Source of the DNA: a virus
Taxonomy: Duplodnaviria > Heunggongvirae > Uroviricota > Caudoviricetes
Virus record (IMG/VR): IMGVR_UViG_3300012933_000323
Span: 1-62,431 of that record
Reading direction: 5' to 3' (one strand)
Length of the DNA stretch: 62,431 nucleotides
Under the pieces are notes generated by a model. That model was not told the origin of the DNA and made no database searches. It saw only the letters and a list, made by a program, of their open reading frames with translations. Made by a program: the position numbers and the translations under genes. How positions within the stretch are numbered: the stretch's first letter is position 1; each line of letters starts with the position of its first letter. Below are positions 38,617 to 62,283 of the stretch, in pieces.

Positions 38617-38835
38617 TCAAATAAAGTGCTCAGGATATTTATCCTTTAATTTTTGAAGATTTAGTTCTTCTCTATCTAAGTTCTCTCTAATCGCAATTAA
38701 TGATTCCTCATTAAAATGTGGATAGTTCAAATTACGATTATATTTATCTATTGACTTACGGATGATATCAATTTTTGTTTGAACATCTTTCTGTTCTCTT
38801 TCAGCCGAACCGATTATGGTATTCTTCATGCTCAT
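38617..38835 (-). CDS. hypothetical protein ending LKDKYPEHFI
   Basis: 72-aa helical ORF; member of the shared C-terminal-motif set. Confidence 0.7.
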   Translation of the reverse strand: MSMKNTIIGSAEREQKDVQTKIDIIRKSIDKYNRNLNYPHFNEESLIAIRENLDREELNLQKLKDKYPEHFI

Positions 38836-38861
38836 CCCGCTTAATTAAAGAATGTGGCTTC

Positions 38862-39044
38862 TTATGTAAAGTCAATAATAGCTTGTTCTTCAGGTTTTGA
38901 CGCTGCTTCTTCCATTTCTTTAATGTATTTATAAAGCCGAACTTGGTGAGCAAACTGACGAGGATGATGTTCAAAATTAGCCAATGAATCACCATAGTGT
39001 TTCTGAAGCTCCTTATATTTCTTTTTAACTTCTGCATCCGTCAT
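38862..39044 (-). CDS. conserved T4-like hypothetical protein
   Basis: KKYKEL..HYG..LANFEHHPRQFAHQVRLYKY; start reassigned to MTDAE at 39044 (GGAG RBS). Confidence 0.65.
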   Translation of the reverse strand: MTDAEVKKKYKELQKHYGDSLANFEHHPRQFAHQVRLYKYIKEMEEAASKPEEQAIIDFT

Positions 39045-39045
39045 T

Positions 39046-39249
39046 TTATCTCCGTTCACTAATTACTGGGATAGGTACGTCTTCCCATTTGCTGTATTCG
39101 TAAGTACACTCATACACACTCCAATTCCAAAATTGCCACATTGGATATTTGTGTTTCGTATGCACTGTTACGGTTCTACTTTGTTGAACAATATCGCCAT
39201 AGCGTCTTGCTATCCGGTATTGTTTGTATTTTGTATATGCTTTGCTCAT
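39046..39249 (-). CDS. hypothetical protein
   Basis: 67-aa ORF, ATGA-coupled to the upstream gene. Confidence 0.6.
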   Translation of the reverse strand: MSKAYTKYKQYRIARRYGDIVQQSRTVTVHTKHKYPMWQFWNWSVYECTYEYSKWEDVPIPVISERR

Positions 39250-39533
39250 TCTGAATAGACCTTATTGAACTGTTCTTCATCCATAATTGAATTGTGTAAA
39301 GCCATAAAGCCGCAATCCATGCCACGTACATACATATCAGGACTAAAACCAAAGATGTCATAAAGTACATATCTATATGTTCCTTTTTGCTTAATTTCTC
39401 CATCTACAATTCGTGAAACTACCGCATGAAAGGCATTGCACTTATCATCGTACGATAAGGATTCCCAAAAATCATTGGCTTGTTTTTCTTGAAAAAGTCT
39501 GTTTTCCTCGAAAGCTTTTGCTAAGTCACTCAT
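39246..39533 (-). CDS. hypothetical protein
   Basis: 95-aa ORF coupled to both neighbours; GTYRYVLYDIFGF...GFMALHN. Confidence 0.65.
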   Translation of the reverse strand: MSDLAKAFEENRLFQEKQANDFWESLSYDDKCNAFHAVVSRIVDGEIKQKGTYRYVLYDIFGFSPDMYVRGMDCGFMALHNSIMDEEQFNKVYSE

Positions 39534-39775
39534 TGTTTTACCTTTTTAGCATTTGCTTCTAAAAGTTTAATAGCCTCAAAGAACTTTGGTACTTCATTAA
39601 AGTCAAATCTTAATGTACCACCAGGACCAAATTCATTCGGATCTTGAGTAATCTTAAAGAAGATTCCACCACCATCGTCGTCAAGTTCTATTGACGTAAC
39701 AGAATCGCCAAAAAGGGGACTGTCGTCCCCTCTATAAAGATTTACTTTTGTTGTTATGAATGAATATTTTGTCAT
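39530..39775 (-). CDS. hypothetical protein
   Basis: 81-aa ORF in a tightly packed run. Confidence 0.65.
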   Translation of the reverse strand: MTKYSFITTKVNLYRGDDSPLFGDSVTSIELDDDGGGIFFKITQDPNEFGPGGTLRFDFNEVPKFFEAIKLLEANAKKVKQ

Positions 39776-40162
39776 TTAAAAGCTGTAATCATAATGGTGA
39801 TCTCGGTGTCCGATCATCAAACCACCGTTTGTTTTCTTATAGCGACCAGTTTCAGAATCAACATACACCTTAATGAATCCTTTATCGGTAATACGAAAGG
39901 TTTGTTTTGAACCGTTTTCATCACGAGTATATTCATAAGACTGTGCGTCGCTCATACCGAGATTATCAGTACGAGTTGCGATGTCCTCTTGAACAGTTAC
40001 ATATTCAAATTTACCTTTTGTAAAAATATCTACTACAGTTGCAGCATGACGATCAGACCAGGAAAGCAAAGTTGCACCAGTTTCACCAATTTGGATATCC
40101 TTGATGGATGTATTCGACATGAAGTGGTTAACCAAAGAACCTGTTTGAGTACCGAGTTTCAT
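39776..40162 (-). CDS. conserved phage hypothetical protein
   Basis: GATLLSWSDRHAATV...GHRDHHYDYSF; directly after the promoter at 40191. Confidence 0.7.
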   Translation of the reverse strand: MKLGTQTGSLVNHFMSNTSIKDIQIGETGATLLSWSDRHAATVVDIFTKGKFEYVTVQEDIATRTDNLGMSDAQSYEYTRDENGSKQTFRITDKGFIKVYVDSETGRYKKTNGGLMIGHRDHHYDYSF

Positions 40163-40190
40163 AACTTACCTTTCGTTTGTTGATAGATAA

Positions 40191-40210
40191 ATTATAACAT
40201 AGAAATTTAA
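40191..40210 (-). promoter_or_regulatory. sigma70-type early/middle promoter TTAA-N10-TATAAT with extended -10 TG
   Basis: TTAAATTTCTATGTTATAAT; shares a 17-nt or longer block with the 41911 promoter. Confidence 0.65.
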
Positions 40211-40217
40211 TAAATTC

Positions 40218-40538
40218 TTAACTTCTACGCATTGTTGAGTAATTAACTGGGTTATCTCCACGACCTACAGGAACTAAATTGGATTTATGCATAGTAGCAA
40301 TACCAATCATATAGTCACCACTGTAAACTTTAGTTTCACGTTTGTGGCAATTACCACCGCCTGACATTAAACTTGGAAGTCTAGCAGTTGTACGATGTGT
40401 ACTTTTTTCTGGCTTGTACGCTTCAAAAGCTTTCTTCGCCTTTTTAGCAGGAGCGAACAATTTTGATAGTTCATTCTCCCGCTTTTGCTTTGCATGCTCA
40501 AGTTGACGTTGGGCCTTTTTCCAAGCTGGTGTACTCAT
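40218..40538 (-). CDS. conserved T4-like basic hypothetical protein
   Basis: YSGDYMIGIATMHKSNLVPV motif. Confidence 0.7.
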   Translation of the reverse strand: MSTPAWKKAQRQLEHAKQKRENELSKLFAPAKKAKKAFEAYKPEKSTHRTTARLPSLMSGGGNCHKRETKVYSGDYMIGIATMHKSNLVPVGRGDNPVNYSTMRRS

Positions 40539-40540
40539 GT

Positions 40541-41881
40541 TTATTCACCTAGTTCCATTGCCATTTCACGAAGCTTGAATACTTTTTCCAAAGTATCGGT
40601 TTCATCTTTATCATTACGAATCTCGATATAACGAGGGTGGCTCAATGCGTAGTAATCGTTGCCTTCAGCTTTTGTCAAATCATTGAACTGGACTGTCATA
40701 ATCTTGCGAAGCAATGATTCCTTATTGGCTGTGAAGTAATCCAATAGATCATCACTGAAACCAGATGTACGACCTTTGATTGTACCTTCGTCATTGGCGA
40801 ATTCAATGGCACCAATTTTACCTTCACGTTTAGTACCTTTAGTACCCTCGGTGAAACCAGTGATACGAACCTCAGCATCAATTTTTAGTTTTAGTTTCAA
40901 CTGTTGCTTTGATGTACCATCCTTGAATACAGCATTCAGGTCTTTAAGAATTGAGCCTTCATAACCTTGGTTCATCCATGTAGATGTTGCTTCCAACGCT
41001 TCTTTCAATGTATTAACATAAATAGCAGGAATGAGTTCAATGTTTTCATTACTATTATCGTTAAGAATTACGCCTAAAGTATTCCAACGTTTTGTGTACT
41101 TTGTATGACATTGGTTCTTCTTGTCCTTCAGACCAGCCTTGGTGTACTCTTCAAGAGTAATGTAATCCCATAATTGGATGATGATATCATCATGTGGTGG
41201 TTCATCAGAATTAATCATACCGTTGCCTTTAGCACGGTCAGCAACACCACGAACGGTTAGTTCACCAACATACACGCCATCAGGGTAATCTTTAAATGCT
41301 TCAAACAGGACAGGGTATTCATAATCCTCACCGCTACGTGATCGTGCTGAGACTTTACCGGAATCAACGGTAATTTCACGATAAGTACCGTCGGCTTTGA
41401 GTTGGACGATTGCAGGAAATGCGATATTCTTTGCAGTTTTTGAACTATACACATCGCAACGCATATAGACTGGTTTTGTAATCAAACCAGGAAATACTTT
41501 ATTGATCAATGTTTTGCCTGCGTTAATACGCAGATCACGATTAATGATTTTCTTAAGTACCGTATAGTCATCATCGCTTAGGTCAGCGAGAAGATCAGCA
41601 ACATACTGAAGTCCAGCATGACCAGTAATTTCACGTGTACAGATTTTTTCTTGCACTTTATCCAAAGCATACACAAGATTGCTTGAACCGGATTTATTAC
41701 CAGGGAACTTATCAATTTGTTCAATTGACATACCATAAGTAAACGCTACTTGATCGTAAGTCATCTTAAGGACACGCTGTAAAAACTTGTCATCTTGATA
41801 CTTTTTCAGTACAGCAATCTTATGGTTTGTTGAATTGCTTTCGTTCAATTCGTTCAAAATCTGATGAATCGTTACCGTCAT
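40541..41881 (-). CDS. gp30: ATP-dependent DNA ligase
   Basis: Motif I QLKADG, SRSG, GEL, EG.ILK, KLK; OB-fold C-terminus with HPRY. Confidence 0.92.
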   Translation of the reverse strand: MTVTIHQILNELNESNSTNHKIAVLKKYQDDKFLQRVLKMTYDQVAFTYGMSIEQIDKFPGNKSGSSNLVYALDKVQEKICTREITGHAGLQYVADLLADLSDDDYTVLKKIINRDLRINAGKTLINKVFPGLITKPVYMRCDVYSSKTAKNIAFPAIVQLKADGTYREITVDSGKVSARSRSGEDYEYPVLFEAFKDYPDGVYVGELTVRGVADRAKGNGMINSDEPPHDDIIIQLWDYITLEEYTKAGLKDKKNQCHTKYTKRWNTLGVILNDNSNENIELIPAIYVNTLKEALEATSTWMNQGYEGSILKDLNAVFKDGTSKQQLKLKLKIDAEVRITGFTEGTKGTKREGKIGAIEFANDEGTIKGRTSGFSDDLLDYFTANKESLLRKIMTVQFNDLTKAEGNDYYALSHPRYIEIRNDKDETDTLEKVFKLREMAMELGE

Positions 41882-41910
41882 TTTCTTTCCTTCAATTTGT
41901 CGATAGATAA

Positions 41911-41932
41911 ATTATAACACAGTTTTTGTTAA
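41911..41932 (-). promoter_or_regulatory. promoter TTAA-N12-TATAAT
   Basis: TTAACAAAAACTGTGTTATAAT upstream of the ligase gene. Confidence 0.7.
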
Positions 41933-42489
41933 ATTTTGACCACCACGTCGTGATCAACTAAAAAAGCCGCAGATGGAAAGTCAATCGTCTTAAAAGATTT
42001 AAGGTTTTCCATGTTGTCGTCATACATTTCAATACATTTCACATCAGGTCGTTTGGCAAGAATTTTTTGAACGACATGCTTTTTACGAGTATGTGAACGA
42101 CCATAGGCTTTGTACTTATCTCTGCCACATCTAGCAATGTGGATTTTATGGTCTAAATAGTGGCCAACCGGAATGCCAAGTTCGTTAAAGTAATGTGCAA
42201 TTGTTTCTTTGCAATCAAAGTTTCCTCTTGCGGTAAGCAAAAGAACCTCTGTACCGTTGCGGTACATATCTTTGAGCATGTTGATCATCGGGTAGTTTGG
42301 TACCGATGTTGAAGCAAACAATTCAGAATCTTCAAACTCGGTAAAGTCGTATGACTCACCAAGTTGAAGTTCGTAATCATTGTATTCCGAGTTGGTAAGT
42401 TTCTTGATCGCCTTACCATTTTTTACGATGTTGACCTTTGCTGTTGTGAACAACAAAGTATCATCGATGTCCATAAAAACCATCTTCAT
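41929..42489 (-). CDS. HAD-superfamily phosphatase
   Basis: DIDDTL motif I, LLTARG motif II, K, and MYDDNMENL motif IV. Confidence 0.8.
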   Translation of the reverse strand: MKMVFMDIDDTLLFTTAKVNIVKNGKAIKKLTNSEYNDYELQLGESYDFTEFEDSELFASTSVPNYPMINMLKDMYRNGTEVLLLTARGNFDCKETIAHYFNELGIPVGHYLDHKIHIARCGRDKYKAYGRSHTRKKHVVQKILAKRPDVKCIEMYDDNMENLKSFKTIDFPSAAFLVDHDVVVKI

Positions 42490-42517
42490 AATTGATCCTT
42501 TGATCTGTAGATAGTTG

Positions 42518-42538
42518 ATTATAACAAATTTTTATTAA
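42518..42538 (-). promoter_or_regulatory. promoter TTAA-N11-TATAAT
   Basis: TTAATAAAAATTTGTTATAAT upstream of the HAD gene. Confidence 0.6.
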
Positions 42539-42544
42539 AATTTA

Positions 42545-44077
42545 TTAGAACAACGCAAAGTCACGTTCATGAACAGGAAACTCTTCTGGATTATATGATG
42601 TATTTTTCCTGTGTTCGTACTGCTTGTAAAAAATACCACCAGGTTTACGAAATCCCATATCATCAACAAGATCAAAGACTGAAAAGATCGACTTAGACTC
42701 GTGTAGTCGCATTCCTCGCCCAATAGATTGAGTAACTGTCGTATATGCTTTAAGTGGCGAACTCAAAATCATGTTATGCAACTTCTTAATGTTAACGCCT
42801 GTACTTAGCAAAGCGTAGTTTGCGATAAGTGTAGCATCTGAATGTTCTTCAAGAATTTTTCGAGTTCGTTCACGAGTCTTGGCATCGTCTTCGCCGTTTA
42901 GAAAGTAAACACCGTACTGTTCTTGAAACTCAAAAGACTTCTTGCCTGTGATATCTTTGTTATCAACTTGCACATCGGGATGCAACTGTTTCATAACATC
43001 TAAGAAAAGTGCTTTACCGTGTTCTGTATGCTGAAACAACACGAGTGTGTTACCGCTTCCTCTCAACTTACATGTTAGATTAACGATGAACTCGTTTCGC
43101 TTCTCATGATCTTTAATAAACTTCAACTGTTTAGTATAGGCGCCATTTTGCGCTTTGCCTGTTGTTTTAGAAGCTTCCTTGAAAATGGCTTTATCATTAT
43201 CGTTATATTTGAATATGATTGAGTTAATCTTAATTGGTGTTGCCAACCCACGTTCAATCAATTGTCTACTGGTAATGTATGTTTTAGGTAAACCAAACAA
43301 TCCAAATAGTTCCATCTTCATGGTTGGGTCTTCAGGTAATGTGCCAGTGAATCCCCATTTGAACTTACAATTGATCGTACCTTTAACAATAGCAGCCGTT
43401 TCTTCAGAAGCAAAACGGTGCGCTTCATCGGTAATAACGTAATCTAGTTTGTTAAGATCATCATGCCAATTCTGCATTGATTGCCAAGTGCTGATTGTTA
43501 GTGAATTATTGAAATGCTTTTCAGATGAGCCACCGCCAATGATATGTGTATCATTGTACAACTCTGTTAAACTATAATCATTAATGTCATTCTTAAATTG
43601 TGTCAATAAGTTAATGTTAGGCACTAACAACAACCCACGCTTGCCTTGACGTCTAAAGAATTCAGCAATCAATGCGATGGTCATTGATTTACCGCTAGAT
43701 GTACACATCTTGTTGATCTGTTTTACATTTAAGATTGATTCTTTAAAAGCCCGCTCCTGATAATCGTAAGGTTCAAATGTTAACTGTTTCTTTACTTGAA
43801 CCAAGAATTCATTAACCTGTTCTTCAGAAAAGTCAGATGTAACAATTTCCTTTGGAACTCCGAAATTGGCCAACAATTGCAGGTGCCCATTCATTACTAA
43901 TAATTTTTGGTTCTGAACAGATGCAAAATAATCATAAGGTGATTTGAAGCCAGACTTTACCATTGGGTCAAACCATGCGCCAGGGCGTTCTACTTTTAGA
44001 AAGTCGTGTAGTGTTTGTAATGTTTTTAAGTCAGCATCAATAACTGAGTAGGATTCATTTAGTTTGTGTACGATCAT
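42545..44077 (-). CDS. uvsW: SF2 DNA helicase UvsW
   Basis: PYDYQ, TSSGKS, DEAH, GFTGT, STGVNIKKLHN, QSIGRGMR. Confidence 0.92.
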   Translation of the reverse strand: MIVHKLNESYSVIDADLKTLQTLHDFLKVERPGAWFDPMVKSGFKSPYDYFASVQNQKLLVMNGHLQLLANFGVPKEIVTSDFSEEQVNEFLVQVKKQLTFEPYDYQERAFKESILNVKQINKMCTSSGKSMTIALIAEFFRRQGKRGLLLVPNINLLTQFKNDINDYSLTELYNDTHIIGGGSSEKHFNNSLTISTWQSMQNWHDDLNKLDYVITDEAHRFASEETAAIVKGTINCKFKWGFTGTLPEDPTMKMELFGLFGLPKTYITSRQLIERGLATPIKINSIIFKYNDNDKAIFKEASKTTGKAQNGAYTKQLKFIKDHEKRNEFIVNLTCKLRGSGNTLVLFQHTEHGKALFLDVMKQLHPDVQVDNKDITGKKSFEFQEQYGVYFLNGEDDAKTRERTRKILEEHSDATLIANYALLSTGVNIKKLHNMILSSPLKAYTTVTQSIGRGMRLHESKSIFSVFDLVDDMGFRKPGGIFYKQYEHRKNTSYNPEEFPVHERDFALF

Positions 44078-44292
44078 ATAAATTTTTCTGGGAATGCTTC
44101 TTTTAATTCATTAATGGTGATGCCGAATTCTGATTCTAATAGATCTTCGCAAACACTCCTATTTACTCCGGTCATTGTCATGCCATTAACACGTTGATCG
44201 TTTGTTGGTCTGAACTCATAAACTACGTCGTATGAATGAACGCCACCGTACTCCTCACGCATATTATAGTTTACAGATTTAAGTAACATCAT
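44074..44292 (-). CDS. hypothetical protein ending LKEAFPEKFI
   Basis: 72-aa ORF, ATGA-coupled; member of the C-terminal-motif set. Confidence 0.7.
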   Translation of the reverse strand: MMLLKSVNYNMREEYGGVHSYDVVYEFRPTNDQRVNGMTMTGVNRSVCEDLLESEFGITINELKEAFPEKFI

Positions 44293-44558
44293 ATGAATTC
44301 TTCTGGGTAATGTTGTTTAAGAACATCAATAAGTACATCTTTTGTCATTGTAAGTTTACCATCACCACAATAAATTGTCATAACTTTAACAGTATATTCC
44401 GAACGCATTAGATGGTTATAGACAAACATTAGACAGCCAACCCAATCGGATGTATGCATGGAATATCCTTTGGGTGGAAATTGCTCATACATAGTAATTC
44501 CCAATACATCCCATTGGCATCCATCCATATCCCACTGCAAATGCCACTTATCTGACAT
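44289..44558 (-). CDS. hypothetical protein ending LKQHYPEEFI
   Basis: 89-aa ORF; member of the C-terminal-motif set. Confidence 0.7.
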   Translation of the reverse strand: MSDKWHLQWDMDGCQWDVLGITMYEQFPPKGYSMHTSDWVGCLMFVYNHLMRSEYTVKVMTIYCGDGKLTMTKDVLIDVLKQHYPEEFI

Positions 44559-51215: not shown

Positions 51216-52319
51216 TTACCAACCGAAATCGTCAGCAGTAAGCTCTCTTTGAATCTTAAAATGATTGGGCAATTCCATCAAAATAGATTTTAACTCGTTA
51301 TCAATTAAATACTGTTCAAACGATTTATCATTGTATGAACATGGTGCTTCTTTGTAACGAACAATGATTTCATTCCAAATGTTAGGAGGAATACCTTCTT
51401 CCATAACAAGTTTGAAATTTCGTTCATAGTGTGGTCTATATAATGGGTGACTATCCAACCACTTATCTAAAGAACCGAACTTTTCAATTTCCTTCTCTAA
51501 TGTACTTGGGCCAAAGCGAATATCTTTATAGATATCTTTAACACCCGTGCTTTCCTTCTTACGGTTTAGCTTGTACACATCAAAGTCAACGAGTAGTTTG
51601 GTCTTTTCTTCCTTACTAATGTTAGCTTCTTTAAATTCAATTGGGTCCTTGATGTTGTAACCAGCATTGGTTAGGTAATCCAAAAAGGATTTACTAAACT
51701 CAGTATGGTCAACAACCTTAGGTACCTCATCACCTGGATCACCCAAGACAACGTGTTCCATAATCCAATGGTTCATGTGAGCATGTTTGTTTTCTGGCAC
51801 AATCCACTTTTTAGTAAGTGCGCTGTATTGGAAAACACTATCATTATCACGTTGAGCCTGAATCATATCTTTGTCTGGGCTATGGATAAGAATCTTTTCA
51901 TACTTGTTATATTCTCTTGCAAGAACTAACATAATATCGTCGGCCTCAGCCTTAGGTACTTCAATAACTTTCCAAGGAAGGTTATTTTTAATTTGATTGA
52001 TGAGACCATCAATCTCTTGAAATACTTCGCCAAAATCGATTTCGGATTCTTCACGACCTTTTTTACGACTAGCTTTGTAGCCAGGGTAAACGTCTTTTCT
52101 CCAATATCCATCCGATGATTTGTCTAAACAAATTACCATATCTCCGAAGTTAGGACCATGTTCCTGTTTAATAGAGAACAGGTCCTGGAGAATGTAATAT
52201 TTGGTTAAACCAATGAAATCTGAAGTGATGTACTTGCCATCTTTCTTTTTAGGTTTGCTGTTTTCAACAGAAGTATGAATCTTCCGATGAATGATAGAAC
52301 TAAAATCAATCAGAATCAT
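51216..52319 (-). CDS. rnh: RNase H / 5'-3' exonuclease (FEN-like)
   Basis: ILIDFS; WRKDVYPGYKASR; EADD; SPDKDMIQ; GDPGDEVP. Confidence 0.92.
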   Translation of the reverse strand: MILIDFSSIIHRKIHTSVENSKPKKKDGKYITSDFIGLTKYYILQDLFSIKQEHGPNFGDMVICLDKSSDGYWRKDVYPGYKASRKKGREESEIDFGEVFQEIDGLINQIKNNLPWKVIEVPKAEADDIMLVLAREYNKYEKILIHSPDKDMIQAQRDNDSVFQYSALTKKWIVPENKHAHMNHWIMEHVVLGDPGDEVPKVVDHTEFSKSFLDYLTNAGYNIKDPIEFKEANISKEEKTKLLVDFDVYKLNRKKESTGVKDIYKDIRFGPSTLEKEIEKFGSLDKWLDSHPLYRPHYERNFKLVMEEGIPPNIWNEIIVRYKEAPCSYNDKSFEQYLIDNELKSILMELPNHFKIQRELTADDFGW

Positions 52320-52332: not shown

Positions 52333-52354
52333 GTATAAGGGTTTCCCCTTATAC
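52333..52354 (-). other. 9-bp hairpin with GAAA loop at the gp32 stop, directly before the rnh RBS
   Basis: GTATAAGGG-GAAA-CCCTTATAC then AGGAGG; no U-tract, so more likely a stability/processing element than a terminator. Confidence 0.55.
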
Positions 52355-53281
52355 TAATCCGTTAAGCAAATCATCCAAGCTGTTAGAAGCAGGTTTGGCT
52401 TGTGCAACGGCAACCGGTTGTGTTTGAACTGGAGCTGTAGCAATTGATGCAACGGCTGGTTGTACTTCAACAACTGGTGCAGTAGCAACAGCGGCTTCTG
52501 CTGTCAAACCACCGGTAGGTGTTACTGTCTCAACGTCTGCGAAGGTTACCCAACGTAGTTTGTCTTGAAGTTTGTTGTAAGGCATGAATGACTCAGGCTT
52601 GATTAAATCTGAAAGCTTGTGAGTGTTGTTCTTGATATCGTTCAACGCGTCATCAACAGAATTGTAGATTGAAGTAACTTCAGTTACAACTTCAGATGAG
52701 TCATAGTTGATTTGACCATTGGCACCCTTCTTAGCAACTAATCGGAATGAGTTACCTGCAAGTGGGTTGAACAATTGCTTAGGTTGTGCACCTAGTGAAC
52801 GGTCTTGTTCTGATGGGTCAACTGCGTTTTGGACTTTATCCTTCATTGCACCAGACATTTCATAAAGGAAAATTTTACCTTCATTAGCTGGGTTAGCCGG
52901 ATCTTTTAGAACTTTGATGTTGGCGATGTATTTAATACCGCGACCGAATAGCTTTGCGCCATCCTTATCGCCGGCATTCCATAGCTTTTGCCATTCTTCT
53001 TGGAATGGGCATGGTTGGCCAATAGATGATGGTGAGAACTCAGAAACGAAACGCTTCTTGCCGTTCTTAGTGATGGTTGTATTTACTTTGAAAAGTTTTT
53101 GGATCATACCCTTTTCAGAGTCTGGGAGGAAACGAATTAGAGCGGCACCATTACCGTTCTTGTCCTTGCCCAATTTGTAGAAGCGGTTATCCTCAGCATA
53201 CTTGTTAGTTTCCTGAGCAAATGGGTCAATACCCACGGCTTCTTTCATTGCGTCAAAATTGAATGCACTTGCGTCGATCAT
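52349..53281 (-). CDS. gp32: single-stranded DNA-binding protein
   Basis: D.RFYKL..DK.GNG.A.IRFLP; ANIKVLKDPANPANEGKIFLY; SLDDLL tail. Confidence 0.92.
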   Translation of the reverse strand: MIDASAFNFDAMKEAVGIDPFAQETNKYAEDNRFYKLGKDKNGNGAALIRFLPDSEKGMIQKLFKVNTTITKNGKKRFVSEFSPSSIGQPCPFQEEWQKLWNAGDKDGAKLFGRGIKYIANIKVLKDPANPANEGKIFLYEMSGAMKDKVQNAVDPSEQDRSLGAQPKQLFNPLAGNSFRLVAKKGANGQINYDSSEVVTEVTSIYNSVDDALNDIKNNTHKLSDLIKPESFMPYNKLQDKLRWVTFADVETVTPTGGLTAEAAVATAPVVEVQPAVASIATAPVQTQPVAVAQAKPASNSLDDLLNGLV

Positions 53282-53384: not shown

Positions 53385-53392
53385 TATTTATA
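53385..53392 (-). promoter_or_regulatory. T4-type late promoter TATAAATA
   Basis: Exact match upstream of the gp32 leader. Confidence 0.65.
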
Positions 53393-53681
53393 TTAGATGT
53401 TCGGCAAATTTATCGTAAAATACATCTTTGCCAAAATAAATTTCAACTTTTTTCAATGTTGATGGCGATCCTTCAGATAATTCACCAGTGAAATAGAATC
53501 CTAATCTGCTGTTGGATCTTACAAACGATGAATTATTAATGAACTTTGCCCAAGCTTTATTTCTCTTTGTCATAACCGGCTTATACTGTTGGCCAGTTTG
53601 CAGGTCAATGACAGTCGGTTGGATGCGCCCATTATAACCACCGGACCAATAAATTTCGCCGGTGTACTCAAAGTATCTCAT
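53388..53681 (-). CDS. hypothetical protein ending FYDKFAEHLI
   Basis: 97-aa ORF; degenerate member of the C-terminal-motif set. Confidence 0.65.
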   Translation of the reverse strand: MRYFEYTGEIYWSGGYNGRIQPTVIDLQTGQQYKPVMTKRNKAWAKFINNSSFVRSNSRLGFYFTGELSEGSPSTLKKVEIYFGKDVFYDKFAEHLI

Positions 53682-54415: not shown

Positions 54416-54437
54416 ATTATATCACTAGAGCAATTAA
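54416..54437 (-). promoter_or_regulatory. promoter TTAA-N12-TATAAT
   Basis: TTAATTGCTCTAGTGATATAAT upstream of gp45. Confidence 0.65.
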
Positions 54438-54697
54438 ATAATGTACTCAGGGTGATCTTTCTTCAACCGCTCAATGTATTGTTTAAAATATTTTGAACTC
54501 TTATAATTGTCCAATGGCTTACCTGCTTGCAAATCTAGTACTAGCTTATCATACATAGCGTCTAGTTTATTTGAATAAAGTTTGTACTGTGATGAATCAA
54601 AAATGTCACCCGCTGTTATAAGCTGACCGTCAGCCAACTCATAAACAGGAATGACATTTTTGCCAAGCAGAATATACTTTTCTCTTGACTTGCGCAT
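54434..54697 (-). CDS. hypothetical protein ending LKKDHPEYII
   Basis: 87-aa ORF right after the ParM-like gene; member of the C-terminal-motif set. Confidence 0.7.
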   Translation of the reverse strand: MRKSREKYILLGKNVIPVYELADGQLITAGDIFDSSQYKLYSNKLDAMYDKLVLDLQAGKPLDNYKSSKYFKQYIERLKKDHPEYII

Positions 54698-54703: not shown

Positions 54704-55660
54704 TTAAGCTTTAGTATTACCAAACAAGAAGAAGCCGATTGAGTTATAGTACTCATGCTTAGTCTTTGGGATACGAATGAAACCATCATCAGTGCTCTTG
54801 AAGATAGTTGAACCACCACCACTTAGACTAATGAAGTCGCACTTATCAAGAATCTTACCGTACTTTGTTTCAATCAAAGTTAGCAAATCTTTCAAATATG
54901 ATTTCTTAACTTCGTCAATGTAAGGTTTGAACTCGTGTTTAGTACCACGAAGTTTGTAAATGCCAGTGTCAATGATTTCTTTTGCTTCGTGCAATGTAAT
55001 CTGACGGCCATGAAGTTCTTTAACTTTCTTGGCCACCAATGTTGCAATCTTCATAACGCCTTCACGCTCAATACCTTCAAACAAGTTCGGTGATGTCTTA
55101 CCATCTGTAACCAAGAACATATCCAATGTATTGAAACCGATATCACAACCCACAAATGAAGTGCTACCAGTGAATTCTTGTTGTAAGTTAGGGAAGTTAT
55201 TACCGTATTTGTCAATACATAGCTTTGAGCCAGCACCCTGTGGAAGGATGTAAACTTCTTCGAAGTTGAACTGTTCACCGCTAACGGTAAAGTTCATTAA
55301 ACCTTCTTTAAAGTGTCCTGAGTTTTCAATTTGAGCTTTGGACAAACCTGAAACAATAATGTCTGGTTTGAAACCAATTAGTTTAATTACATGATACAAG
55401 AATAGCGGAGCGTAATATTCCAAGTTCTTGTAGTCAGTAATATCAATCAAGTTTTCTGATGGTAAATGCAAGGCATTCTCACCAACATAATAACTGTGTT
55501 CACGGAAATCATAAATGCGTGAATCTTGTACATATTCATTACGCTTTGTGATACCGATTGTTGAAGTAAATTTAAATTGTTTGTCGACTTGACCTTCAGA
55601 TGTACCAACAGTAACCTTCACATCGCCGAAACCAATATCAATACCTAAAATAGTTTTCAT
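54704..55660 (-). CDS. ParM/StbA-family actin-like ATPase
   Basis: Phosphate-1 GIDIGFGDVK, connect LPQGAG, phosphate-2 CDIGFNTLD, adenosine LSGGGS, NSIGF. Confidence 0.88.
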   Translation of the reverse strand: MKTILGIDIGFGDVKVTVGTSEGQVDKQFKFTSTIGITKRNEYVQDSRIYDFREHSYYVGENALHLPSENLIDITDYKNLEYYAPLFLYHVIKLIGFKPDIIVSGLSKAQIENSGHFKEGLMNFTVSGEQFNFEEVYILPQGAGSKLCIDKYGNNFPNLQQEFTGSTSFVGCDIGFNTLDMFLVTDGKTSPNLFEGIEREGVMKIATLVAKKVKELHGRQITLHEAKEIIDTGIYKLRGTKHEFKPYIDEVKKSYLKDLLTLIETKYGKILDKCDFISLSGGGSTIFKSTDDGFIRIPKTKHEYYNSIGFFLFGNTKA

Positions 55661-56356: not shown

Positions 56357-57793
56357 TTATTTATTTTCAAAAATTCGTTCTGTCCACTCAGTAATCTTAC
56401 CGCGAACAACTTTGTTCAATTCAGTGCCGAAGATATTGATTTCCTCATTCTCTTCCTTAGCTGCTTTGATCAACGTGCTTAAACCGTTCGTGTACTTATT
56501 GATATATGGGTGATCAATCTGACGGTTAGAACCAATACAAACAACCTTTGATTCTTTATCCATACGAGTAAGAACAGTCTGCAAAGATGTCTTAGCAAAG
56601 TTCTGTACTTCGTCAACAATCACGAATGAGCGAGAGATTGTACGACCACGAATAGAACCGTTCCACATTGTTTCAATATTGTAACGTTGTGTTAACTCTT
56701 GAATCTTATCTTCAATTGAGTTGCTTTTATTGTTGTCTGCTTTTTCAGATTTGTCGTGCTTATCGTGTTTATCTGCTTTTTCAGATTTCTCAGGTCTATC
56801 AGATTTCTTTAGTTCTTTTTGAGCAATAAACTCTAATGTATCATACAACGGATAGTTATAGATCTTGAACTTTTCTTCTAAACCTGGTAAGAAACCAACT
56901 TCTTCTGCTTTGTCAACGGATTCAACAGAGTTACGAATATAGATGATCTTGTCGTACTTACCCATACGAACCATTTTCATACCAGCTGCAATAGCAAGCA
57001 ATGTTTTACCAGAACCAGCTAAGGCTTCAATAACACAAACATCAACTCGTTCATCACACATACCAGCCATCGCAAAACGTTGACCCAAGTTCAAAGGCTT
57101 AACTGCTAAACCATGAAAGTCTTCATCATCAATAAAATTAATACATCCATCAATAATATAACCAATTCGTTCATGGCCATCAGATGCAATGAAATGATAG
57201 CAATAATTTTCAGGCTTGTGTTCGCTATCATACCTTAGAATAGGTGCGCCGTCCATGCGAAGACTATCAATGTCATCTAAGTGTAGAACTTTTACGAATT
57301 CGTTTTTGAGCGAATCTTTGTTTCTAGTAAGACCTTCAGCTTGTACATTTAAACTAACTGCGCGTGTACGGCACATAATGTCATTAGACAATAAAACCGT
57401 TTCACTCGGCATCTTATAAAATGTTGTTGCAAATTCAGCTGCTTTAATAATCTTACGATCATTAATGACAGATGGATCTACACCCTGCAACCCATAATCT
57501 TTAAATGAGATGATGTCAATAAAGATGTCTTTAACTCGCAGTGACATGATTGTCACATCTTTCTTTGCACCGGACTTTCGAGTTTTGATAACTTCCGCTT
57601 CAGATAGAATCCTTCCGAATTCTCTAGCTTGGAAATTGATTTCACTAAAACCAGACTTCTTAGCATCCAATTCGTCAATTACCGTTTCTGGTAAAATGAT
57701 CAAATTCTTGCCACTTTGTCCGATTGTGATTAGTTGGTTTGCGTCTTCTAAGATAATGTTAGTATCTAGGACATAGATTTTTTCAAAGTTCAA
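56357..57793 (-). CDS. phoH: PIN domain + PhoH-family ATPase
   Basis: YVLDTNII...VIDELD..K...NDRKII...SNDIMCR (PIN); ALAGSGKT, IRGRTI, VDEVQN, GSNRQID (PhoH). TTG start at 57793 after AAGGA. Confidence 0.9.
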   Translation of the reverse strand: MNFEKIYVLDTNIILEDANQLITIGQSGKNLIILPETVIDELDAKKSGFSEINFQAREFGRILSEAEVIKTRKSGAKKDVTIMSLRVKDIFIDIISFKDYGLQGVDPSVINDRKIIKAAEFATTFYKMPSETVLLSNDIMCRTRAVSLNVQAEGLTRNKDSLKNEFVKVLHLDDIDSLRMDGAPILRYDSEHKPENYCYHFIASDGHERIGYIIDGCINFIDDEDFHGLAVKPLNLGQRFAMAGMCDERVDVCVIEALAGSGKTLLAIAAGMKMVRMGKYDKIIYIRNSVESVDKAEEVGFLPGLEEKFKIYNYPLYDTLEFIAQKELKKSDRPEKSEKADKHDKHDKSEKADNNKSNSIEDKIQELTQRYNIETMWNGSIRGRTISRSFVIVDEVQNFAKTSLQTVLTRMDKESKVVCIGSNRQIDHPYINKYTNGLSTLIKAAKEENEEINIFGTELNKVVRGKITEWTERIFENK

Positions 57794-57803
57794 TTGGTAT
57801 TCC

Positions 57804-58463
57804 TTATAGTGTGAATTTTGAAGAGAGCTCACCTTGTATCTTAGGACGATTAAATTTACCGTTCTCAAAATAAGGTGTCTCAGTAAACTTAACTAGGTAA
57901 TCATTCTGACGAAAGACTCTCCAATTAAGTTCAGATTCGAACCTACCAGGTTCGGTCATATCTTGCGTCTTTTCCAAAAGAATTTGACTAGGTTCTAAAA
58001 AGCCTTTCACGACTGGGTGAACGGCTAAACATACTCTATATTTGTTATTGTAATATTTGCCCATGAACCAAACTTTGCCAGGATAATCTTTAGTAAGTTG
58101 TTCACCTTCTTGTCGGTTTTTAATCGTAAAGAATAATGCGTAGTTTGATAAACGAGCTTCTTTTAAAGGTTCATTTTCAACGAACCTTAGAATGGCTTTA
58201 GCGCCAATATCATTATCTCGTCTTATTAACAAATATTCTTCGTTTGGGCGTAGTGGTAGGACAGCGTTAACCATCCAACGTGACTCGGAATCTGTTGCTA
58301 CATCATAATTGACCATTAACGGCTTCTGATCAAGTTGGAAGTACCAACTGTACGGTGCTTTGATGTTAATGAATTCTTTATACGGCACCTGATTATTTTT
58401 GAGAGCTTCTTTGCACTCATTATAAAACTGGGTGCTGTAATATGGGTCAATGGTAATGAACAT
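57804..58463 (-). CDS. hypothetical protein
   Basis: 219-aa ORF with AAGGA RBS; no family recognised. Confidence 0.7.
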   Translation of the reverse strand: MFITIDPYYSTQFYNECKEALKNNQVPYKEFINIKAPYSWYFQLDQKPLMVNYDVATDSESRWMVNAVLPLRPNEEYLLIRRDNDIGAKAILRFVENEPLKEARLSNYALFFTIKNRQEGEQLTKDYPGKVWFMGKYYNNKYRVCLAVHPVVKGFLEPSQILLEKTQDMTEPGRFESELNWRVFRQNDYLVKFTETPYFENGKFNRPKIQGELSSKFTL

Positions 58464-58481
58464 GAATTCCTTCCTTTGATA

Positions 58482-58856
58482 TTATTTATCTTTGAGATGA
58501 ACCACGTCGTACCTTACTAATGTAACCAGCGCTAACTGGTCAGATTTAATTGTTGCGGTAATAATTCCTTCACCGTCAGGAACAACAAGCAAATTAAATA
58601 GGTACCACGCATTCAAAACCGCAGCATACATTGGTACAAAATTCATCAGAAATGCACTGTAAATCTTAAACCCGGAATTGTACTTCCTGATATAAATTTG
58701 GCGCATTTTGCTAAAAGATATTACTTTTTGTAGTTCTCTCTCAGATAAATTGCCAGCTTTAACTAATGTAAAAATGAATGTACATACGATGGCAACAACA
58801 TTTGAGATTAACCCAAACACAATAAAATCCCATACGACTGGATCAAAGAAGTCCAT
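58482..58856 (-). CDS. small membrane protein
   Basis: Two hydrophobic segments; TAATG overlap with the gp52 stop (start MDFFDP at 58856). Confidence 0.65.
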   Translation of the reverse strand: MDFFDPVVWDFIVFGLISNVVAIVCTFIFTLVKAGNLSERELQKVISFSKMRQIYIRKYNSGFKIYSAFLMNFVPMYAAVLNAWYLFNLLVVPDGEGIITATIKSDQLALVTLVRYDVVHLKDK

Positions 58857-60163
58857 TAGATTTCCTCTGACCAAAGTTGTTGAATAGATTTCTTAATCAA
58901 TTGGTCCAACTCTGATTTCTTTAGTTTAATGTCTGATTCAAGTTTTGTCATACGTTCTTCAGTCAATGACATAATGTTCATATTTAACAGATAATCGTAT
59001 GAATCATCTTTAGCAAGAATGTCTTTTACTTTATCAAGATCCTTAACAATGTCTGCTTTTTTGCGCTTGGACACAATTAAGGTGTTATCGACGATCATTT
59101 TAATGAATAAGTATTTACTATAGTCATAGCGGATTTCCTCCTCTAGACGTCCTTTCATGTGCTCCTTGCGAGCTGTTAGCGATGCTAACTTAACACGAAT
59201 ATAATGATCGATGATTTCCTCGGCGGACTCATAAACTGCAATTTTGTTATTTTCATCAATGACGGTATAGTTCTCAGATACCTTTTTGATAAGTTTAAGG
59301 CGGTTCATCAGTTCATCCAACGGCCATGCCTTTAGATCTTTTGAAGGAACGGTTACTTCAAAGTGGAACTTATCATCTTCTGACTTGTCACGGTAACTTT
59401 GAATTACCTTCTTGTCTTCTAGATCGTCTAGAACATCAATATAGGATTTCAAATCATAACCAATAGGTACTTCTGTAATCTCTACTTTGTTGATACCAGT
59501 GATCTTTAAAACACCTTTGATTAACCACTGTGAACTGTTTTCACCAGCTTCAATTGTACCTTTGAAACCGTTATAGTGAGGAACAAGTTTAACCTTTGGA
59601 GTTTTACCACTTAACTTTGCGGTAATGTACTTCTTAACATCATCTGGGTTACGAGGTAGAATTTTCTGAGCAAAACCAGACGAAACACCTTCACTACCAT
59701 TTACCAAAAGAATTGGTAATGTTGGCACATAAAACATTGGTTCAATCTGCTGCCCTTCAAAGAACTGATGCTTAAGGATAGCGGTGTCATCTTTGCGAAA
59801 TAATTCAAAGAACTGAGATGTGCCGTAAGTGTAAATGTAACGTGATGCAGATGCTTCTTGTGAGAAGCGAGTACCAAAGTTACCTTTCTTCTGCAACAAC
59901 GGGATGTTGTTTGTGCCAGGGAAATCTTGCCCAAGGTTAACAATAACACCATCCATAGAGCCGTGTAAGTACTCAGCAAACTCGGCTACCTTAGAGCCAA
60001 GTTGCGAAACCTTGATCTTCTCTTTAATATTCTTTTCAAGAACAGTGTACAGAATTTTACGAGAAGCATTTTTCTGTCCGTCTACCAATGAAGCGATCTT
60101 TCTGAGGTTATCATAAGATGCTTGGTCAACGTAATCTTTATTAAAGAACTCCGAAATTTTCAT
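58856..60163 (-). CDS. gp52: type II topoisomerase medium subunit (GyrA/ParC-like)
   Basis: DGQK..RKIL; YLHG..S; GNFGTR...ASASRYI (catalytic Tyr); LVNGSEGVSSGFA. Confidence 0.95.
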   Translation of the reverse strand: MKISEFFNKDYVDQASYDNLRKIASLVDGQKNASRKILYTVLEKNIKEKIKVSQLGSKVAEFAEYLHGSMDGVIVNLGQDFPGTNNIPLLQKKGNFGTRFSQEASASRYIYTYGTSQFFELFRKDDTAILKHQFFEGQQIEPMFYVPTLPILLVNGSEGVSSGFAQKILPRNPDDVKKYITAKLSGKTPKVKLVPHYNGFKGTIEAGENSSQWLIKGVLKITGINKVEITEVPIGYDLKSYIDVLDDLEDKKVIQSYRDKSEDDKFHFEVTVPSKDLKAWPLDELMNRLKLIKKVSENYTVIDENNKIAVYESAEEIIDHYIRVKLASLTARKEHMKGRLEEEIRYDYSKYLFIKMIVDNTLIVSKRKKADIVKDLDKVKDILAKDDSYDYLLNMNIMSLTEERMTKLESDIKLKKSELDQLIKKSIQQLWSEEI

Positions 60164-60185
60164 AATTTTTCCTTTCAGTATTGTT

Positions 60186-60207
60186 ATTATAACACAACTT
60201 GATTTAA
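60186..60207 (-). promoter_or_regulatory. promoter TTAA-N12-TATAAT
   Basis: TTAAATCAAGTTGTGTTATAAT between the two topoisomerase genes. Confidence 0.7.
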
Positions 60208-60210
60208 CTC

Positions 60211-62007
60211 TTATAGTTTAGCAATACTGAAGTCATTTGCCAAGATGTACTTTTTGCGAGGTTCTGAGTCATCACCTAACCACTCTTCAATGATTTGATC
60301 ATTGTCGAACTCCAAGATGTTAATCATTTTTGACAATCCATCTTGTTGTACAACATATTTCAAATCTTCAATGTCCCATGAACCCAAACCTTTATAATAG
60401 TTTGATGTTTCACCAGCTTTCAATTTAACGTTGTCGCTAAGGTTGTAGTACCATGCGGTCAATTGATCTTTCTTTGTTACACCGATCACCGGTGTTTGCA
60501 GCATACCGATCTTACCTTTAAGTTCAGGTAGATAGCGTACGAAGAACCCAGTTAACAAACCACGAATGTGGTAACCGTCCAAGTCTTGGTCAGTTGCATA
60601 GATGACGTACTGGTAATCTTCGTTCTGAATGATTTTATACAACTCAGACAGCTCTTTGTTTTCGGTGAACTTCTTTTGTTGTGCTGAGTACGCGTTCAAC
60701 GGTTTACCTTTAAGGGTGTAATAACCGCATTCTTTGCGACCAAGAACTGGTGATAAACCACCAAGAGCAGATTCACCTTCAACCAATAGTAAGTATTTCT
60801 TAACACCGATGGATGGTAAATACTTATCAGATTTGATTTTCTTAACAGTTTTGGTCAACGCTTTTAGATCTTGGCGTTTCTTAAACTCTTCTTTAATGCG
60901 ATAGATTTCAGTGATAGGATCAATGATAGCAGCATTACGGAATAATTTGTTAACGATATTGTCGTATGGAATTTCACCAAAGTATTCATTGATCTCGGCT
61001 GCACCGTTTGTAATCTTTTCTTTAGATTGTGAATTGAACTTTGTGTTCTTTACATTCTTTAGAAATGCAATGATCATTAGTTTATTCTTGATATCGCCAG
61101 GTTTGATTTCTTTGTACTTACGAGCTAGCTTTTCACGAAGGCGAGATACGATCTGATGAGATAGAATGTCGATATGAGTGCCACCATCAGGAATCTTCAA
61201 ACCATTTACATAAGAGAATTGGCGGAAGTCATCTTCGGCATTTGGGAGTACAGCGAAACGATAGTCTTCGGTTTCATGAATTTCAAAATTTTCATTGAAG
61301 AGTGCAACATATTTCTTAAAAGAATTAACATTGATCTTCTTACCGTTGAACTTGAATGTAATGTCAGGGAACGACATGCTTAGGTTAATGAGTCGCTGTT
61401 TGATAACGTTCATGTGAACATCATCAATAGACTTCAAACCAAACTTTTCAAGGTCAGGCCAAAATTTTACATTAACGCCAGTTTCTTTTGAAGGACCTTC
61501 CTTGTCTGTAAAGGAGGCGGCATTGTCCTTGAATGTAATTGTGTATGACTTTTTACCGTCGTCGGTAAAGCCAACAAACTTTTTAGAGAAGCAGTTCGTG
61601 GCGAATGAACCTACACCGTTCATACCAATTTGCGTACGATTGGCATCGTCATCAAAGTTTGAACCAGCACGAGCATGACCCCAAGCAAGTTCAGCTAAGT
61701 AATGTCCGTCAGATCCTTTCATCACTGGAATGCCAGTGCCGTTGTCCTGTACTTCTACGGTGTCATCGGTAATCTTAACAGAGATTTCATTACTTGATTT
61801 GAATTTTGTTTTAATTGCAACGTCAACAGAGTTGTCAATAATTTCATTGATGATCTTGATCAAACCAGGAACATACGCAATTTCCTTGTACACGATCTTG
61901 TCATCTTCAAATACATATTCACTAACCTTTGTAAGGTCAACAGCACCAATGTACATAGACGGGCGCTGAATAATATGTTCACGTTCAGAAAGTTTCTTAA
62001 TAGTCAT
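60211..62007 (-). CDS. gp39: type II topoisomerase large subunit (gp39+gp60 fused, GyrB/ParE-like)
   Basis: EIIDNSVD, DNGTGIP, GMNGVGS (GHKL); VEGESA, LKGK.LN, DQDLDG.HI (TOPRIM); YYKGLGS. Confidence 0.95.
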   Translation of the reverse strand: MTIKKLSEREHIIQRPSMYIGAVDLTKVSEYVFEDDKIVYKEIAYVPGLIKIINEIIDNSVDVAIKTKFKSSNEISVKITDDTVEVQDNGTGIPVMKGSDGHYLAELAWGHARAGSNFDDDANRTQIGMNGVGSFATNCFSKKFVGFTDDGKKSYTITFKDNAASFTDKEGPSKETGVNVKFWPDLEKFGLKSIDDVHMNVIKQRLINLSMSFPDITFKFNGKKINVNSFKKYVALFNENFEIHETEDYRFAVLPNAEDDFRQFSYVNGLKIPDGGTHIDILSHQIVSRLREKLARKYKEIKPGDIKNKLMIIAFLKNVKNTKFNSQSKEKITNGAAEINEYFGEIPYDNIVNKLFRNAAIIDPITEIYRIKEEFKKRQDLKALTKTVKKIKSDKYLPSIGVKKYLLLVEGESALGGLSPVLGRKECGYYTLKGKPLNAYSAQQKKFTENKELSELYKIIQNEDYQYVIYATDQDLDGYHIRGLLTGFFVRYLPELKGKIGMLQTPVIGVTKKDQLTAWYYNLSDNVKLKAGETSNYYKGLGSWDIEDLKYVVQQDGLSKMINILEFDNDQIIEEWLGDDSEPRKKYILANDFSIAKL

Positions 62008-62045
62008 TTCAATCCTTTTTCTTCGAAAGTCATTTTGTTAGTCGT

Positions 62046-62066
62046 ATTATAAACACAACATGTTAA
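62046..62066 (-). promoter_or_regulatory. promoter TTAA-N11-TATAAT
   Basis: TTAACATGTTGTGTTTATAAT upstream of gp39. Confidence 0.6.
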
Positions 62067-62067
62067 T

Positions 62068-62283
62068 TTATATCGCGAACTCCGGGTAACTGTTCTGGAC
62101 TTCTTTAAAAAGTTCCAAGTACTCAGCATTTGTCCTGTCTAAAATCTCAACAGTTTCAGTTAGATCTTTGACTTCATCTTGGAGTTTATCAACGTAATCT
62201 TTGTTGTCTTTAATGATTTCGCAAACTGGACAGTGCCGGCAGTCGTAGCAAACTTCTTCATGTCCATCATCACACAAGTTCAT
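62068..62283 (-). CDS. Cys-rich + coiled-coil small protein ending VQNSYPEFAI
   Basis: C..GH..VCYDCRHCPVC then a heptad region; member of the C-terminal-motif set. Confidence 0.7.
   Translation of the reverse strand: MNLCDDGHEEVCYDCRHCPVCEIIKDNKDYVDKLQDEVKDLTETVEILDRTNAEYLELFKEVQNSYPEFAI

Follow-up and report, generated by a model that had tools for sequence, protein, structure and literature searches.

The stretch of DNA analyzed here, referred to as the window, is 62,431 nucleotides (nt) long and lies at the start of a viral genome of 205,555 bp with a G+C content (GC) of 37.5%. A sequence-only reading had singled out six small open reading frames (ORFs) in it that end in the same 10-residue motif, and had interpreted this C-terminal tail as a portable tag that recruits unrelated proteins to one partner. 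ORFs that carry the tail are called tagged below, and residues are numbered backward from the stop codon, -1 being the last. Genome records are designated by G-numbers, with G000 being the genome that holds the window, and fetched loci or fragments by L-numbers. The coordinates and endings of the six ORFs were found to be correct, each tail standing directly before the stop codon, but the strand required correction, as all six are encoded on the minus strand:

38617..38835, minus strand: tagged ORF of 72 amino acids (aa) by translation, ending LKDKYPEHFI-stop, immediately upstream of a Cpn10/gp31-like gene (38284-38604)
44074..44292, minus strand: tagged ORF of 72 aa ending LKEAFPEKFI-stop, its ATA-TGA end overlapping the ATG of a UvsW-like helicase gene (42545-44077)
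44289..44558, minus strand: tagged ORF of 89 aa ending LKQHYPEEFI-stop, its stop overlapping the start of the 44074..44292 ORF
53388..53681, minus strand: tagged ORF of 97 aa ending FYDKFAEHLI-stop (the Ala variant at -5), between a putative sliding-clamp gene and gp32
54434..54697, minus strand: tagged ORF of 87 aa ending LKKDHPEYII-stop, downstream of an actin-like ATPase gene (54704-55660)
62068..62283, minus strand: tagged ORF of 71 aa with a Cys-rich N terminus, ending VQNSYPEFAI-stop, upstream of a topoisomerase II gene (60211-62007)

The tail conforms to the consensus [LIVF]-K-x-x-[YFH]-[PA]-E-x-[FLIA]-I-stop. When all six frames of the window were searched, the pattern [YFH][PA]E..I-stop matched exactly six of the 503 ORFs of at least 30 aa, with zero spurious ORFs. 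Only 0.003 matches were expected from the amino acid composition of the 72 called window genes. In 2000 trials with the final 12 residues of every gene shuffled, the mean number of matches was 0.007 and the maximum was 1. The motif thus exceeds chance in both comparisons. The motif was longer and commoner than the 10 residues in six proteins first described. It spans positions -14 to -1: positions -14, -13 and -10 are hydrophobic, -6 is aromatic, -5 is Pro or Ala, -4 is Glu, -2 is Phe or Leu and -1 is Ile. It is carried by 17 genes of G000, all of which scored at least 9.3 with a leave-one-out position matrix. Lys was present at -9 in 14 of these 17 tails. The weakest member was 62068..62283, at 9.3 versus 4.4 for the best nonmember, and the Ala variant at 53388..53681 scored 15.0. 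Within G000 proteins, a matrix score of at least 8 was reached in only 7 of 59,654 internal windows. Internal copies of the motif were found in 9 of 60,645 windows in G000 and in 6 of 56,462 in Va1, which makes them roughly a thousandfold less frequent than terminal copies. Va1, together with phiKT1024, pv27 and phiTY18, belongs to the Vibrio phages that are the nearest cultured relatives of G000, with a UvsW helicase that is 71% identical.

The motif is fixed not only in composition but also in its distance from the stop codon. The register was assessed by anchoring on the aromatic-Pro pair at -6/-5 alone, an approach that presupposes neither Glu nor Ile. In five genomes, Glu was present at -4 in 137 of the 141 proteins anchored in this way, and Ile, Leu or Val was present at -1, also in 137 of 141. 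The string [YFHW]PE occurred at offset -6 in 58 genes of Va1, 49 of G003 (a complete 103.5-kb phage with direct terminal repeats and 169 genes) and 8 of G000, and in 0 to 1 gene at any other offset from 3 to 12. The identity of the last residue varied by genome, being Ile in 15/15 tails of G000 and 50/52 of G003; there were 1 Ile, 4 Leu and 2 Val in G006 and 2 Ile and 5 Val in L041.

To judge from the codons, selection acts on the peptide, since every synonymous codon is in use for the conserved Lys, Pro, Glu, Phe and Ile and since the tails of four orthologous families differ by synonymous changes alone; the protein-level constraint that had been proposed from the differing codons is thereby upheld. 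The L053 orthologue of the 44289..44558 protein kept an identical tail with synonymously changed codons, and the orthologues of 44074..44292 in L053, L036 and L046 showed only synonymous changes at the conserved positions. The tail of 54434..54697 was retained in the orthologues of L020, L033 and Va1. Across 15 orthologues of the 38617..38835 protein, the tail residues K, Y, P, E, F and I were invariant, and body identity within this 15-member family fell to 38%. Members of this 72-aa family were found in L016, L041, L053, L073 and Va1.

Codon choice at the tails was also related to the neighboring gene. ATA (Ile) and TGA were overused, producing an ATATGA end with an embedded ATG, so that the ATG of the next gene overlaps the tail (window 44074-44077 and 44289-44292, and many Va1 tails). 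ATA made up 53-64% of the terminal Ile codons versus 9-19% of Ile codons genome-wide. GAG and CCG were enriched if the next gene started within 15 nt; in Va1, GAG was used in 21/39 tails with a gene start at most 15 nt away versus 9/30 otherwise. However, translational coupling tunes codon choice secondarily and does not create the motif, because 30 of the 69 Va1 tails lack a gene start within 15 nt and because the commonest Pro-Glu codon pair, CCA-GAA, is unlike a Shine-Dalgarno sequence. Two of the six window tails precede gaps of 60 and 106 nt, and the tail of 53388..53681 is not explained by coupling, since the next gene starts 106 nt downstream.

The window neighbors of the tagged ORFs are T4-type replication genes encoding two helicases, ligase, gp32, topoisomerase II, a Cpn10/gp31-like protein, PhoH and the actin-like ATPase. 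Cpn10/gp31-like genes were also observed within a few kilobases of tagged ORFs in 11 fetched metagenomic loci. The structural block of G000 (1-36 kb) contained zero tagged genes, and the late promoter TATAAATA was found at most 60 nt upstream of none of the 18 tagged genes of G000 (0/18) versus 33 other genes that have it. These data agree with the absence of the tag from structural genes noted in the sequence-only reading, and they support the conclusion that the tag is confined to nonstructural, nonlate genes.

The bodies to which the tail is attached were found to be diverse. Whether they constitute one homologous family had been set beforehand as a test; the comparison was run at the level of BLAST, Pfam and PHROG, and no common family emerged. 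When the last 14 aa were removed, the G000 bodies showed no BLAST similarity all against all, with a best E value of 0.025 in a database of 17, and Pfam and PHROG scans of the six tagged proteins of the window gave no significant family. More broadly, 245 unique tagged proteins fell into 182 BLAST body clusters, of which 152 were singletons. Scanning 81 tagged proteins yielded only 5 matches in Pfam and 12 in PHROG, most of them to families of unknown function. The tail was borne by DUF285/leucine-rich repeat (LRR) proteins of 59-425 aa and by a Gad2-like or nucleotidyltransferase-like family of 277-379 aa, and other cargo domains included AAA_14, ProQ-C-like, DUF7448 and nucleotidyltransferase. 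The Pfam matches indicate at least three probable unrelated folds among the tagged bodies, and the sequence comparisons support the tail as a portable module of approximately 14 residues placed on unrelated bodies. Portability, the first part of the earlier proposal, therefore stood, and the earlier interpretation as a whole was supported in part, its one common partner being hypothetical.

The tail was next followed across phages. In Va1, 69 tagged ORFs were found, corresponding to 20% of all genes and 32% of genes of up to 150 aa, and every one of them lies on the main transcription strand. The GenBank record of this phage (MK387337.2; L079-L082) contains 135 features on 195 kb; about 200 small ORFs are unannotated there, and most of the approximately 70 tagged ORFs are among them. 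A back-translated pattern recovered 73 loci with 183 tagged ORFs from IMG/VR, on contigs of 25-47% GC, including tandem arrays of 12 tagged ORFs in a row in L010 and 10 in L028. G003 had 41 tagged genes by matrix score and 52 by regular expression. Since only 11 proteins of this tail-rich phage matched anything in G000 or Va1, the tag is present on at least two unrelated phage backbones. With the pattern [YF]-P-E-x-x-aliphatic-stop, the counts were 7 in G000, 35 in Va1, 23 in G001, 42 in G003, 14 in G004, 30 in G009, 16 in G011, 14 in G012, 5 in G006 and 6 in G008, against control counts of 0-1. By the same pattern, T4, KVP40, CP220, AR9 and Alteromonas phage AD45-P1 were at background. Neither the region, by megablast, nor two of the tagged proteins, by tblastn, gave matches in cultured phages, because the small proteins are too divergent.

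Beyond phages, 185,579 prokaryote genomes were scanned for host mimicry. Among the matches listed, most were out-of-frame chance occurrences, phage contigs binned into metagenome-assembled genomes (MAGs) or sporadic cellular proteins. Arrays of 5-12 tagged small ORFs were observed on short MAG contigs (L163 and L168, Ignavibacteria; L196, Thermoplasmata; L214), which are probably mis-binned phage contigs. Also among the matches listed were GntR-FCD regulators ending K-x-x-Y-P-E-x-F-I. This family belongs to Bacillales and relatives (L202:5947-6639; L126, L135, L164, L242), and its ending lies 14-18 aa past the Pfam FCD domain. In 120 homologues of one such regulator, L-K-x-x-Y-P-x-Y-F was conserved, and position -4 was variable (D, K, N), the last residue was polar (mostly K) and extra residues at the end were possible. 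The look-alike thus shares with the tag the C-terminal helix, the Lys, the aromatic-Pro kink and the aromatic pair, but its Glu is not invariant, its end is polar, its register is variable and it is restricted to one homologous family, without portability. The helix-kink-aromatic part of the tail is accordingly read here, from sequence, as a probable generic structural scaffold. Since the GntR-FCD ending lacks them, Glu, an aliphatic last residue and a fixed end make up the phage-specific part of the tail, which is probably what is recognized.

An AlphaFold2 (AF2) model of the 72-aa protein encoded at 38617..38835 (pLDDT, a per-residue confidence score, 89) was a helical hairpin in which helix 2 continued into the tail, with a kink at Y67-P68 followed by a one-turn helix at residues 68-71. 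In the structure model of an LRR protein, the tail appeared as a low-confidence appended helix, detached from the confident body. A profile of 50 tails compared with all PDB sequences revealed no chain ending in the motif, all E values being at least 0.07.

Selection on the peptide, exact register and portability led us to consider that the tail is a common recognition handle read in trans, which we regard as rather probable. As envisaged, an amphipathic helix ending in L-K, a Tyr/Phe-Pro kink and then E-x-F-I-COOH would be placed on many unrelated accessory proteins, with the Glu at -4, the aliphatic last residue and their fixed spacing as the likely recognition determinants. To identify a phage-encoded reader, the proteins shared between the backbones were examined. 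Among the 11 proteins that G003 shares with G000/Va1, the most similar were a zincin-vWA protein (47% identity) and a MoxR ATPase (44% identity). In coordinates of the whole genome G000 unless another record is named, these genes and a tagged gene associated with them are as follows:

95066-96169: MoxR AAA+ ATPase, matching AAA_5 (E value of 3e-10) and bpMoxR
143325-144584: zincin metallopeptidase-vWA fusion (DUF2201_N + DUF2201), by Pfam-type domains
94186-95115 (also Va1 29648-30787; L092:4908-5777; L097:7155-7988; G004 72627-73493): tagged Gad2-like (Gabija anti-defence 2)/nucleotidyltransferase-like protein, immediately or one gene after MoxR

The key residues of both domains of the fusion protein are conserved. 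In 17 sequences, the metal ion-dependent adhesion site (MIDAS; DxSGS..T..D) of the vWA domain was invariant at D291, S293, G294, S295, T349 and D373, and in the zincin motif HExxHxxxxH, H80, H84 and H89 were invariant and E81 was present in at least 90%. MoxR homologues were found in Va1, G003, G004, L092 and L097, and all tail-rich genomes and large fragments that could be checked encoded zincin-vWA, the one exception being G011, a 28%-complete fragment. The gene directly downstream of MoxR was tagged in 6/6 tail-rich genomes for which the MoxR region was available. In G000, Va1, L092, L097 and G004, the tagged Gad2-like orthologue was at or near this position, and in G003 a tagged ORF of 72 aa occupied the position. 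G006 has one gene between zincin-vWA and MoxR, and this gene is tagged. The conservation of a tagged Gad2-like protein near MoxR over two backbones hints that some of the cargo may be anti-defence proteins.

We therefore propose, with a probability of about 0.35, that the tail is a portable tag read by the phage's own MoxR and zincin-vWA pair, the leading candidate reader, which is not among the partners listed in the sequence-only reading. vWA MIDAS sites are described as capturing peptides, and some bacterial vWA-MoxR systems are accompanied by a zincin peptidase and by small proteins that diverge fast but keep a conserved peptide at the C terminus (PMC7159879). The same pair is known in T4-like jumbo phages, where it has no known client (PMC7824862). 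In the proposed mechanism, the MIDAS metal site would capture either the terminal carboxylate or the Glu; clipping of the client by the zincin domain may follow, and the ATPase would remodel or release the client, so that many small effectors could be handled as one group. The identity of the reader and the effect on the client are speculative. A fuller version, which we regard as doubtful taken as a whole, is a private tag-and-reader system for as much as a quarter of the proteome or more, chiefly orphan accessory proteins that probably act against the host. In that version, the MoxR/zincin-vWA pair would clip, activate, remove or assemble the tagged group, and the whole system would have moved horizontally between unrelated backbones.

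Several observations weigh against assigning the tag to this pair. Most tagged genes lie away from the MoxR and zincin-vWA genes. The pair also occurs in the tail-free phages AD45-P1, G007, G010 and AR9, which have a homologous zincin-vWA and no tails; because of this, the pair is at most necessary and not sufficient for tails. In a tree of zincin-vWA proteins, tail-rich and tail-free phages interleave, with 4 changes needed, and MoxR subtypes fail to track tails, so that neither the zincin-vWA clade nor the MoxR subtype was retained as a predictor of tails. Only about two independent backbones carry both the tail and the pair, and a common habitat with exchange of genes could account for their co-occurrence. 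The heterogeneity of the last residue may come partly from recent paralogy. Finally, the confident placement of the tail inside the fold of a small helical protein by AF2 would also fit a structural cap. No alternative shared tail was seen in the pair-bearing tail-free phages L098, L099, L101, L102, L104, L106 and AD45-P1, and the tails of G006 that end in Leu or Val are few. Complex prediction of zincin-vWA (17-row alignment, with Mg and Zn) with the 72-aa tagged protein (5-row alignment) gave a score of 0.00 in two runs made with no controls, which speaks neither for nor against binding.

The evidence from selection, register and portability would be equally valid for a different reader in trans. 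This could be a conserved host machine, such as an AAA+ protease for which the tail is a degron that clears accessory proteins on schedule, a chaperone, or another phage protein. Two nonpolar last residues are typical of C-terminal degrons (ssrA, Tsp), and the tail has them. A ClpP-like protease is encoded by G000, Va1 and most panel genomes, the MoxR/zincin-vWA pair also occurs without tails, and the spread of tails over phages of 25-47% GC, and so probably over different hosts, would fit a very conserved host reader. On the other hand, the motif is unlike ssrA (LAA) and MuA-type ClpX tags, and most phages of the same hosts lack the tail, such as KVP40 on Vibrio, which would be odd for a universal host machine. 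In the comparison of G003, G000 and Va1, no further phage gene tracked the tails. We consider such a reader possible, though on balance unlikely.

Individual candidates were examined and either rejected or judged unlikely. ClpP was absent from tail-rich G009 and present in tail-free AD45-P1 as well as in G006 and G008. A tiny DUF7230 protein, which is among the 11 proteins shared by the T4-like phages and G003 (genome 91851-92060; Va1 33027-33203; G003 6768-6905), is encoded directly upstream of ClpP in G000 (ClpP 91285-91857) and in Va1. GroEL was discarded as G000 encodes none. The sliding clamp, a partner suggested by the sequence-only reading, is unlikely because core replication proteins carry other, acidic-aromatic tails: the RNase H-like protein ends in ADDFGW (window 51216-52319), gp32 in DDLLNGLV (52349-53281) and the C-terminal piece of the polymerase in ELDDW (genome 74467-75591). 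The distinction drawn earlier between the tag and clamp-binding tails was thus supported. Endings of the ADDFGW/DDLLNGLV/ELDDW type recur in the distant phages L101 and L104 and may represent a separate replisome docking code. The capsid, likewise among the suggested partners, is disfavored, since the tag is at the C terminus and all 18 tagged genes lack a late promoter and lie outside the structural blocks.

It is rather unlikely, in our estimate, that the tail acts solely in cis as a structural cap, without any reader dedicated to it. In such a cap, helix, Pro kink and two hydrophobic residues would fold back to close small helical proteins, which would stabilize the protein or hide its C terminus from host exoproteolysis. 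The high-confidence tail of the 72-aa model, with its continued helix 2, kink and short helix, would suit such a role, as would the retention of L-K-x-x-Y-P-x-Y-F at the C terminus of a cellular family and the presence of Y-P-E-E-F at helix-Pro-helix junctions within known folds such as that of fructose-2,6-bisphosphatase; the conserved residues could also all contact each other inside the motif. However, a cap needs no position exactly three residues before the stop, whereas the register is absolute. Glu, Ile and a fixed end are missing from the cellular look-alike, the LRR-protein tail was modeled loose and with low confidence instead of packed, and the distribution is all or none between lineages (20-30% of the genes of some carry the tail, but it is absent from T4, KVP40 and CP220), unlike a generic stabilizer.

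Common descent of the tagged genes, by duplication and very fast divergence of one ancestral small gene with the tail as its slowest-evolving, functionless remnant, is improbable. The tandem arrays are frequent, with 12 and 10 members in the longest cases mentioned above, and some neighbors are clear recent paralogues. The tail nevertheless occurs on proteins of 59-425 aa from different families, with LRR, nucleotidyltransferase-like and AAA folds among them; 152 of the 182 body clusters are singletons; and 97% Glu with exact register over hundreds of genes would still demand that the tail itself be under purifying selection. A signal in the nucleic acid where genes end (a Shine-Dalgarno sequence together with an overlapping start of the next gene, or an RNA processing or recombination site), with the peptide as a by-product, is largely refuted as the primary cause and very improbable. 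The ATATGA overuse and the GAG/CCG enrichment near gene starts speak for it. Against it are the use of all synonymous codons at every conserved position, the prevalence of CCA-GAA, the 30/69 Va1 tails and two window tails with no nearby start, and the fixed Lys at -9, aromatic residue at -6 and Phe at -2, which a Shine-Dalgarno constraint would leave unfixed.

The motif, the selection on it as judged from codons, its register, its portability and its distribution are established, and a portable tag is a plausible interpretation. Should the tail prove to be a true address tag, one handle would be available for orphan genes, dozens in each genome, of a widespread marine and aquatic phage group, along with a common denominator for a fifth of the genes of a phage. 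Reading by the MoxR and zincin-vWA pair, if true, would supply the long-missing client of these phage proteins, and the system would be a rare viral case of proteome-wide, genetically encoded C-terminal addressing. Bacterial protein engineering could also make use of the tag as a small module that can be moved between proteins. The cultured Vibrio phages Va1, phiKT1024, pv27 and phiTY18, with about 70 tagged genes, make the question accessible at the bench. Even if the tail were only a structural cap, the reuse of one mini-motif on hundreds of unrelated small proteins would be striking.

The principle of shared C-terminal tags is already known, but no published description of the present tail was found in literature searches with peptide strings, for shared phage C-terminal motifs and for Va1-group genomes, and a genome paper on the Va1 group does not mention the motif. 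Among known systems that address proteins through a short shared peptide, the T-even capsid targeting sequence (internal proteins, Alt) resembles the tag in directing different phage proteins to one destination; that sequence, however, is N-terminal, cleaved by the prohead protease and present on late genes, whereas the tag is C-terminal and its genes have no late promoters. The clamp-binding tails of T4/RB69 (gp43, gp33, gp55) and the acidic tails of T7 (gp2.5, gp4) are likewise C-terminal tails shared by several phage proteins, and they dock on one partner. They are found on a handful of core replication and transcription proteins, in contrast to the dozens of orphan proteins that bear the tag. 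By analogy, the tag may also be likened to ssrA (ClpXP, ClpAP) and to the nonpolar tails recognized by Tsp/FtsH, which are short, C-terminal, nonpolar at the end, transferable and read with a free carboxylate. It lacks the LAA-type nonpolar tripeptide, as the tails end x-[FL]-[ILV] after an invariant Pro-Glu, and it is genetically encoded on 5-30% of phage genes, whereas ssrA is added by transfer-messenger RNA (tmRNA).

The MoxR and metallopeptidase-vWA proteins of T4-like (group 2.2) jumbo phages described by Iyer et al. (2021, PMC7824862) are the same pair in the same kind of phage. The role proposed for them was virion assembly and the processing of structural proteins, with no mention of tagged clients; here, the pair is tied by gene context to nonstructural tagged proteins. 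The bacterial vWA-MoxR ternary conflict systems (FxSxx-COOH, RxD and acidic types; Kaur, Burroughs, Iyer and Aravind 2020, PMC7159879), whose peptide-processing model is itself computational, share with the phage set the MoxR, the MIDAS vWA and the zincin-like metallopeptidase. The phages have a MoxR-clade ATPase, a vWA with an intact MIDAS and a zincin-like metallopeptidase. Small, fast-diverging proteins of which only a C-terminal peptide in register with the stop is conserved occur in both, and in the phages they may be linked to the pair: a tagged gene adjoins the MoxR or zincin-vWA gene in G000, Va1, G003, G004, G006, L092 and L097, but most tagged genes lie elsewhere and the pair also occurs without tails. 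They differ from the bacterial systems in that no radical-SAM maturase or third VMAP component was seen in the phages, in the fusion of the zincin to the vWA, in the motif K-x-x-Y-P-E-x-F-I and in the clients, which are scattered and number tens per genome in the phages, compared with one per operon in bacteria.

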